Part shown: piece by piece, positions 23,915 through 25,324 of the stretch
Layout: each line of letters begins with the position of its first letter
Numbering within the stretch: position 1 is the stretch's first letter
Source of the DNA: a virus
Lineage: Duplodnaviria; Heunggongvirae; Uroviricota; Caudoviricetes
Reading direction: 5' to 3' (one strand)
Length of the DNA stretch: 38,213 bases
IMG/VR virus record: IMGVR_UViG_2526164668_000029
Location: 1-38,213 of that record
The notes under the pieces: model-generated
The model's input: only the letters and a program-made list of their open reading frames with translations
The model's database searches: none
Told to the model about the DNA's origin: nothing
Made by a program: the position numbers and the translations under genes

Positions 23915-25324
23915 TTACTCATCTACTCTGATTTTTTGTTTTTTATTATTTTGAGTTAAGACATTTATGGTAATAGATGTATACGGATGAAAGTCAGGCA
24001 CTATACTTTTAACCTCTCCATTTTCAAGAAAATGATGTGCTATTGAAGGAAATAAATCAGGATCTACAGGATATTTAGCATTAGGATTATGATACATATT
24101 TAAACCTTCTGCCCATGTTTCTGTAATATCGCCTTCTTTCACTTCAAAACTAAATGCTGCTGGATATAATGCCTCTGGGTCATGATCATGGCAGTAACCA
24201 CTCCTAAATAATCTAAGGTCACTTCTTCCAAAACCAGCCAGTTTTCCCATCCGATTAAACTTCGATATAGTACCACTATTAGAACTAAGGACGGCCGAAA
24301 TATTTTCAGACTCATCCAAGAAGAAAAAGCCTGAAGGAATTTCCTTTTTCTCAAATTGATGCGATATAATTTTCTTAGTTGCTAAACTGTAACATCCATC
24401 TTCAGATTTAACATGCTCATAGCGAATACCATAAAGATACTGCCAAAGTGCACTATGGGACCAAATCATAGAGTTTGGTTCATGAAAATCAGCAATTGCG
24501 AAAATTAAAGGATTCCCCTTAACATGTTCTAGATCCCAGTATCGAGTTTTCTTTTTCAGTTTAGAATAGAGAGAACTTCCAAATTTAATCGGCATATAAT
24601 TCTCTATTTTCTCTAGCAATTCTTCCTTACTTTTAGGTTCAGATAGCATTTCAGATGATTGATTAATATCATTCCCTGTTGGATTAACCGTTACAGCTTC
24701 AATGCAAATAGTATTACCATACTTACGTGCCACATAATCAGGGGCATTAAACTGCCTATCTAGCCAAAAGTGTTCCTCTCGTAAATATGCGAAAAGATAT
24801 AACTCCCATAGCCGGGCATCAAAACCTGTTGTCTGAAACTGCTCTATAAAATTCCCGTCGACATCCTCAAAATGATTCATCATTTCCTTTATTATCCCTG
24901 TTGCAGGCGACCAGTTCGCGTATTTACCAAATAATGAAAAATGATGATGAAGTTTATCTGGTGTAACTATAGGTGTGAATAAATCCATTGCTTTATAAGT
25001 TTCATCACCTTGTGGAAATACTTTTACGTTTAATTTAGTATGCTTCCGCATTAATTTCTTTAGTTTTGCTCGTGCAGAATTCATTTCTGAAACACTAGTA
25101 AATAGGTCAATACATCTATATCTCCCACTTAAGTCTCTTGCTAAAACAATACCGCTATAATCTTCATCGATTTGATCCAATAATAGTGCCCCTAGCAGGA
25201 ACTCTCTCGGACTACAGTACCACTCAAACTCATAGCCTAAAAGTTCAGTATTTGGCATTCTGGTCCAATCAACAAAAGCATTAAACCTCTCTTTACTCAT
25301 TTTTTTTATATCAAGAAAAGACAT
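23915..25324 (-). CDS. hypothetical 469-aa cargo protein between portal gene Q and cos; candidate defence gene
   Basis: Long clean ORF, strongly AT-rich against the structural genes; GAGGT Shine-Dalgarno 6 nt before the ATG; no Walker or other motif I can assign. Confidence 0.75.
   Translation of the reverse strand: MSFLDIKKMSKERFNAFVDWTRMPNTELLGYEFEWYCSPREFLLGALLLDQIDEDYSGIVLARDLSGRYRCIDLFTSVSEMNSARAKLKKLMRKHTKLNVKVFPQGDETYKAMDLFTPIVTPDKLHHHFSLFGKYANWSPATGIIKEMMNHFEDVDGNFIEQFQTTGFDARLWELYLFAYLREEHFWLDRQFNAPDYVARKYGNTICIEAVTVNPTGNDINQSSEMLSEPKSKEELLEKIENYMPIKFGSSLYSKLKKKTRYWDLEHVKGNPLIFAIADFHEPNSMIWSHSALWQYLYGIRYEHVKSEDGCYSLATKKIISHQFEKKEIPSGFFFLDESENISAVLSSNSGTISKFNRMGKLAGFGRSDLRLFRSGYCHDHDPEALYPAAFSFEVKEGDITETWAEGLNMYHNPNAKYPVDPDLFPSIAHHFLENGEVKSIVPDFHPYTSITINVLTQNNKKQKIRVDE

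Follow-up and report, generated by a model that had tools for sequence, protein, structure and literature searches.

The 469-aa cargo gene located between the portal gene Q and the cos site of a 186/P2-like prophage, integrated at ssrA in Escherichia coli, encodes a member of the PD-T7-1 family of phage defence proteins, as indicated by its profile match, its domain architecture and its genomic context. In the explanation that best accounts for the results, and which we consider likely, this gene is an exchangeable, cos-proximal defence cassette of the prophage whose product acts as an infection-activated nuclease. The window analysed is the whole stretch of 38,213 nucleotides of the virus record, and all coordinates refer to it. 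A first-pass annotation, made from the letters of the window, had left the gene unassigned while proposing a single-gene defence or exclusion function as the leading hypothesis. The absence of assignment did not hold, since curated defence-system models name PD-T7-1 directly, and the hypothesis itself is supported by a full-length match to this family, by experimentally validated homologues and by the variable content of the slot in which the gene resides. We consider a defence function of the cargo gene highly probable.

The cargo gene and its surroundings

The features of the cassette and of its flanks are as follows, from the portal gene to the DinI-like gene:

22833-23867, plus strand: portal gene Q, flanking core gene, convergent on the cargo gene
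23795-23867, plus strand: AT-rich 3' end of Q (last 12-25 codons), diverging with the cassette; left recombination boundary
23872-23894: perfect hairpin (10-bp stem, 3-nt loop) in the 47-bp spacer between Q and the cargo gene; part of the cassette
23915-25324, minus strand: cargo ORF, 469 aa, ATG start; PD-T7-1-family defence gene
25325-25416, minus strand: cassette-specific AT-rich upstream region, presumed promoter
25332-25335, minus strand: ribosome-binding site GAGG, read from the sequence
25417-25566: conserved cos island of 150 bp, kept in relatives with differing flanks
25425-25443, minus strand: 19-nt cohesive-end sequence GGCGTGGCGGGGATACGAG, inside the cos island
25567-25645: second slot for cargo, between the cos island and the DinI-like gene (A side), unoccupied in this prophage
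25646-25879, minus strand: DinI-like gene, conserved flank on the A side (Pfam DinI, 1.3e-22; RefSeq annotation)

The replication gene A begins at 26232. The GC content along the cargo gene is 0.31-0.37 against 0.52-0.62 in the adjoining terminase, portal and replication genes (overall, about 35% in the gene and about 55% in the phage backbone), and the gene is the lowest-GC block of the prophage, in agreement with the marked AT-richness noticed at first pass. An open frame of 1.4 kb in such AT-rich DNA did not arise by chance, and thousands of homologues of the protein exist. Its RefSeq counterpart is WP_000008839.1, an identical CDS present in E. coli S88 and others and labelled "hypothetical protein". 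The gene was said to have its own ribosome-binding site, and a GAGG motif is indeed placed 7 nt upstream of the ATG. Consensus scans of the 92-bp upstream region gave weak matches only (7/12) and no convincing sigma-70 promoter; relatives with another cargo are homologous only from 25417 onwards, the stretch 25325-25416 being specific to the cassette.

The coordinates agree with the described position of the gene between Q and cos, convergent on Q across a hairpin. This hairpin (TAACCACCTC tat GAGGTGGTTA, 23872-23894) has a folding z-score of -4.4, and none of 200 shuffled sequences folded equally well. It was not called by a consensus terminator scan because it is without a clean T-run, and it is probably a two-way transcription stop between the two convergent genes. 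A Klebsiella phage with an Abi-alpha cargo has another hairpin at the same place.

The cos site, a candidate at first pass, is borne out by three observations. Within the window, the 13-mer GGCGTGGCGGGGA occurs once (25429-25441, minus strand), for a chance expectation of 0.08; the cohesive-end sequence agrees with the P2 cosL sequence GGCGAGGCGGGGAAAGCAC at 14 of 19 positions and is oriented with respect to Q as it is in P2; and the surrounding 150-bp island is conserved. A search of the phage 500465-1 record with the cos pattern gave no match, the sole reason being a 1-nt deletion in that record. In P2, the interval from the Q stop codon to cosL measures 167 nt (the earlier figure of about 130 bp was thus roughly right) and contains a terminator alone, the old and tin genes being located on the A side of cos. 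The cargo gene is therefore an insertion relative to P2, as had been proposed.

Assignment to the PD-T7-1 family

The PADLOC model of PD-T7-1 (PDLC04073) matches the protein over nearly its whole length (E=1.3e-196, 651.7 bits; residues 7-457 aligned to positions 2-449 of a profile of 452), and this answers the profile search that the first-pass annotation had suggested as a check. The PD-T7-5 model (PDLC04110) matches residues 113-436 only, with E=1.4e-56. Presumably, DefenseFinder would also label the gene PD-T7-1. No family was found for the 469-aa protein in Pfam or NCBIfam, and the corresponding PHROGs entry is phrog_8571, of unknown function. Some homologue records are named "glycosaminoglycan attachment protein", a name for which Pfam provides no supporting domain.

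PD-T7-1 came out of a functional selection in which T7 was applied to genomic libraries of E. coli (Vassallo et al. 2022, PMC9519451). The PD-T7-1 gene of ECOR46 (RCQ85672.1), cloned as a single ORF with its native promoter, gave protection from T7, with a stronger effect on T-even phages, and left adsorption unaffected (PMC9519451), and a homologue from NILS69 introduced into K-12 gave protection against a Teseptimavirus and smaller T7 plaques (PMC12409345). By analogy with these two homologues, the allele studied here is predicted to confer phage resistance; it probably shares far less than 90% identity with the ECOR46 protein that was tested, which has about 450 aa.

The family is large, with 3727 matches among scored candidates at 90% clustering and, at 50% clustering, 1778 clusters with E<=1e-3. 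In a prophage of the 186 type attributed to Erwinia billingiae, the same slot is taken by a homologue with 74% identity. A homologue with 50% identity separates the primase from the Ogr/Delta region of a Klebsiella P4-like satellite, and another is located directly downstream of a Burkholderia type I R-M operon. More distant homologues (32-36% identity) are carried by lambdoid, Morganella, Yersinia and Klebsiella phages. No conserved partner gene was found across the E. coli, Erwinia, Burkholderia and Klebsiella contexts; since the homologues share no neighbour, a self-sufficient single-gene system fits the data.

Domain architecture and conserved residues

An AlphaFold model of the protein, built on 60 homologues, is of high confidence, with a pLDDT of 89 and a pTM of 0.89. 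Three parts make up the protein: an N-terminal domain that is optional, a core resembling restriction endonucleases, and a beta-rich C-terminal domain that is conserved. They are encoded as follows:

24995-25324, minus strand: N-terminal accessory domain, aa 1 to ~110 (in the model, a four-stranded antiparallel sheet and a long helix)
24425-24907, minus strand: central restriction-endonuclease-like (PD-(D/E)xK-fold) alpha/beta domain, aa ~140-300
24737-24739 and 24698-24700, minus strand: codons of D196 and E209
24560-24562, minus strand: codon of K255
23945-24424, minus strand: C-terminal beta-rich domain, aa ~301-460, with K355, R358, E402, W404 and N413 conserved family-wide

The N-terminal domain is absent from about 40% of the family representatives, which are core-only, PD-T7-5-like proteins (these matches are ~345-360 aa long); consistently, the alignment columns of residues 1-100 have an occupancy of 0.52-0.62, and those of the core reach 0.94-1.0. 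No convincing structural analogue was found for the C-terminal beta-rich domain.

Conservation was assessed on 150 representatives at 34-54% identity. Fifteen residues are near-universal in this set: D156, Q164, R171, E174, P195, D196, E209, K255, Y262, W263, K355, R358, E402, W404 and N413. Among them, E174, the P195-D196 pair and E209 are conserved at 96-98% and K255 at 100%. The P195-D196 ... E209-A-V211 arrangement corresponds to a degenerate PD...ExV form of the PD-(D/E)xK motif, in which the canonical lysine position is occupied by V211 in the query and never by a conserved lysine in the family. The statement that the gene carries no nuclease motif was thus contradicted, both by this degenerate motif and by the restriction-endonuclease-like core in which it is found. 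We propose that this core is probably a PD-(D/E)xK-fold nuclease with a relocated lysine, K255 being the candidate.

A statistically non-significant hhalign alignment of PDYVARKYGNTICIEAVTV to the sequence VDLVAGNGKKYLCIEVKV of Hjc, an archaeal Holliday junction resolvase (1gef), pairs D196 with the catalytic Asp33, E209 with the catalytic Glu46 and V211 with Lys48. The HHpred results published for PD-T7-1 point to the same region (about aa 171-219), with probabilities of 80% for Hjc and 55% for PDDEXK_5, and later surveys place PD-T7-1 among the single-gene PD-(D/E)xK systems. Searching the PDB by sequence profile returned nothing meaningful, whether the whole alignment or that of the nuclease domain was used, and Pfam scans of 38 domain fragments returned noise only; no curated nuclease family gives a significant sequence-profile match in Pfam or the PDB profiles, the published HHpred probability being at most 80%. 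Likewise, Foldseek gave no match at E<=0.001 against the PDB and BFVD. The fold relatives of the core include both DNases and RNases.

A HEPN ribonuclease was also considered and rejected. The RSGYCH segment (374-379), earlier judged too weak to be called HEPN, is rightly set aside: H379 varies among homologues, and a beta-strand (370-378), not a helix, is predicted for the segment. R374 is conserved among close homologues, and neither R374 nor H379 is conserved across the wider family. No HEPN model of Pfam or PADLOC matched the protein.

Cassette limits and content of the hotspot

The cargo gene is present in 25 of 5426 complete E. coli genomes and the flanking sequence in 1288, so that carriers represent about 2% of the E. 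coli genomes with flanks. All 25 copies are chromosomal and share at least 99.6% identity; IS1 has inserted into two of them. The limits of the cassette were set by pairwise BLAST and by alignment with relatives holding other cargo, including an alignment of the portal C-termini. On the left, homology to these relatives ends at 23794 or 23834, within the last 12-25 codons of Q; on the right, it resumes at 25417, only 8 nt ahead of the cohesive-end sequence.

In a spread sample of the flank-bearing E. coli genomes, more than 15 annotated cargo types were encountered at this locus. Those replacing the gene or located beside it comprise TIR, AIPR, PIN, ParA with RelA/SpoT, DUF2971, DUF4145, DUF262, DprA, GNAT, TIGR02391, STAS-like and P-loop NTPase genes, as well as genes for an ATP-dependent endonuclease and for an RNase A-like protein accompanied by a CdiI immunity protein. 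Abi-alpha and OLD-like genes also occur in this slot among relatives. The comparison of the Q-to-cos interval across related prophages, put forward at first pass as a check, reveals a variable content (TIR, AIPR, PIN and others), and the view of the cos-proximal region of P2-like phages as a hotspot for anti-phage cargo is confirmed by this variability as well as by the literature. Indeed, 1,650 arrangements were reported in 18,150 loci of the gpA-gpQ hotspot (Rousset et al. 2022, PMC9122126), and the P2 hotspot between A and Q was also described by Vassallo et al. 2022 (PMC9519451). No homology of the gene to a core packaging gene was detected, and only about one in fifty flank-bearing E. coli genomes has the gene, so that neither of the findings which the first-pass annotation would have taken as a refutation was made. 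We conclude that the cargo gene is an exchangeable, horizontally acquired cassette between A and Q, adjoining cos.

The second slot, empty in the window, is filled by a DUF4145 gene in E. coli MS8345, another carrier of the cargo gene, and by a hypothetical gene in a Klebsiella phage. The "A-Q hotspot" may thus consist of two independent cargo slots, one on each side of the 150-bp cos island. Rousset et al. speculated on cassette exchange begun by terminase-cut DNA ends (PMC9122126), and an exchange started in this way would fit the present data because the junctions are 8 nt from the cohesive end and inside the last codons of Q.

Proposed mechanism and alternative explanations

No published mechanism for PD-T7-1 or PD-T7-5 was found in the literature searched. 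We suggest that the lysogen would express the protein from the short AT-rich region adjoining cos and that, upon infection by an unrelated phage, the protein would cut nucleic acid, the invading phage DNA being the likeliest target. Cleavage would rely on a metal-dependent PD-(D/E)xK-type site composed of E174, D196 and E209, in which K255, from the following helix, would replace the missing canonical lysine, while the non-catalytic domains would hold the protein inactive or confer specificity. Infection may be sensed by the C-terminal beta-rich domain, and the optional N-terminal domain may act as an additional regulator. These proposals are not equally firm: that the effector is a nuclease appears reasonably probable, the chances that its substrate is DNA rather than RNA are about even, we express no preference between direct immunity and abortive infection, and we doubt that the whole combination, namely a non-canonical K255 site with sensor and regulator domains together with a two-slot A-Q hotspot around cos, will prove correct in all its parts.

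The same protein could instead protect by abortive infection, a triggered nuclease destroying the host chromosome or the tRNA/rRNA with death or arrest of the infected cell. We give this explanation as a whole a lower probability, though by no means a negligible one, and its RNA-targeting version is kept as the main rival because the fold relatives of the core comprise DNases and RNases alike. It agrees with the lack of a methylase or any other self-marking partner beside every homologue examined, and with the 12 systems out of 21 that acted by abortive infection in the original screen; however, 7 of the 11 systems of that screen with DNA-binding or DNA-cleavage-like domains provided direct immunity (PMC9519451), and the conserved acidic residues D196 and E209 are more in keeping with a metal-dependent site of the DNase type than with the Tyr-His-Lys site of EndA-type RNases. 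It is also conceivable, but improbable, that the core is catalytically dead and binds DNA or a phage protein, protection resulting from blocking or sequestering. The replacement of the motif lysine by V211, with no conserved lysine there family-wide, and the failure of every sequence-profile search to recognise a nuclease family would be expected of such a protein, but the conservation of E174, D196 and E209 (96-98%) and of K255 (100%) in very divergent members is the pattern of a maintained active site, and the PD-(D/E)xK superfamily offers familiar examples of a lysine that has changed its place.

We regard as very improbable indeed that the gene has no defence role and is either a selfish homing-type nuclease spreading the cassette by cos or a lysogenic-conversion gene with a host-directed role. 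The sharp cassette limits, one of them 8 nt away from the cohesive end and the other within the 3' part of Q, could evoke the former, but they are common to unrelated cargo (TIR, Abi-alpha) and therefore belong to the hotspot and not to the cargo gene; moreover, some homologues have no cos site nearby and are carried by satellites or adjoin R-M systems. In favour of a host-directed role, many carriers are extraintestinal pathogenic strains (ExPEC S88, MS7163 and UPEC132 included) and the "glycosaminoglycan" name is borne by some homologue records, albeit without the domain that would justify it. Against both versions, family members cloned alone confer phage resistance. A defence cassette encoding an infection-activated nuclease thus remains the preferred reading.

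Type IV (modification-dependent) restriction was considered because the homologues protect best against T-even phages. It is not supported: no SRA, EVE or YTH-type reader domain is present among the fold matches, and T7, whose DNA is unmodified, is also restricted.

Comparison with known systems

PD-T7-1 of ECOR46 is the closest known system. It shares with the query a full-length profile match, a single gene of ~450-470 aa, a weak Hjc/PD-(D/E)xK signal at aa ~171-219 and an occurrence in prophages and defence islands. The query, with 469 aa, extends beyond the profile by ~6 residues at the N-terminus and 12 at the C-terminus and is another allele than the one tested. PD-T7-5 (E. coli UMB0934, Vassallo et al. 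2022) is also a T7-selected single gene and has the nuclease-like core and the C-terminal domain, but PD-T7-5-type proteins are devoid of the ~110-aa N-terminal domain. The old and tin genes of P2 occupy the same A-Q hotspot by cos and provide a prophage-encoded exclusion of unrelated phages; however, neither Old (ATPase and Toprim nuclease) nor Tin has any sequence or domain relationship to the cargo protein, and the P2 cargo is on the A side of cos, whereas the cassette described here is on the Q side, which is empty in P2.

Among more remote systems, Shedu (SduA) relies on one protein for defence, in which a PD-(D/E)xK nuclease core is combined with variable N-terminal domains believed to govern its activation. 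The resemblance, which concerns these three traits, is by functional analogy only: domain order and the C-terminal domain differ, and no PADLOC or Pfam match to Shedu/DUF4263 was obtained, even at E<=1. By this analogy, the association of a PD-T7-1-type site with a C-terminal sensor may represent a Shedu-like logic built from unrelated parts. As for the minimal PD-(D/E)xK nucleases of the Hjc/VRR-NUC type, they differ from the query in that the profile match is non-significant, the lysine of the ExK motif is a valine in the query, and the query core is embedded in a 469-aa protein of three domains.

Both the gene family and the hotspot were already known, the latter having been described twice (PMC9122126, PMC9519451). 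The details that are possibly new are refinements of this knowledge: two slots arranged around cos, a junction that falls within the 3' end of Q, and the residues proposed for catalysis and sensing. The case can also serve as a positive control, a reading limited to composition and position having picked out a real defence gene. For PD-T7-1 and PD-T7-5, the three-domain map and the residues E174, D196, E209, K255, K355, R358, E402, W404 and N413 constitute mutagenesis targets that are ready to use. Finally, the annotation of WP_000008839.1, carried by ExPEC strains such as S88, can be upgraded from "hypothetical protein".

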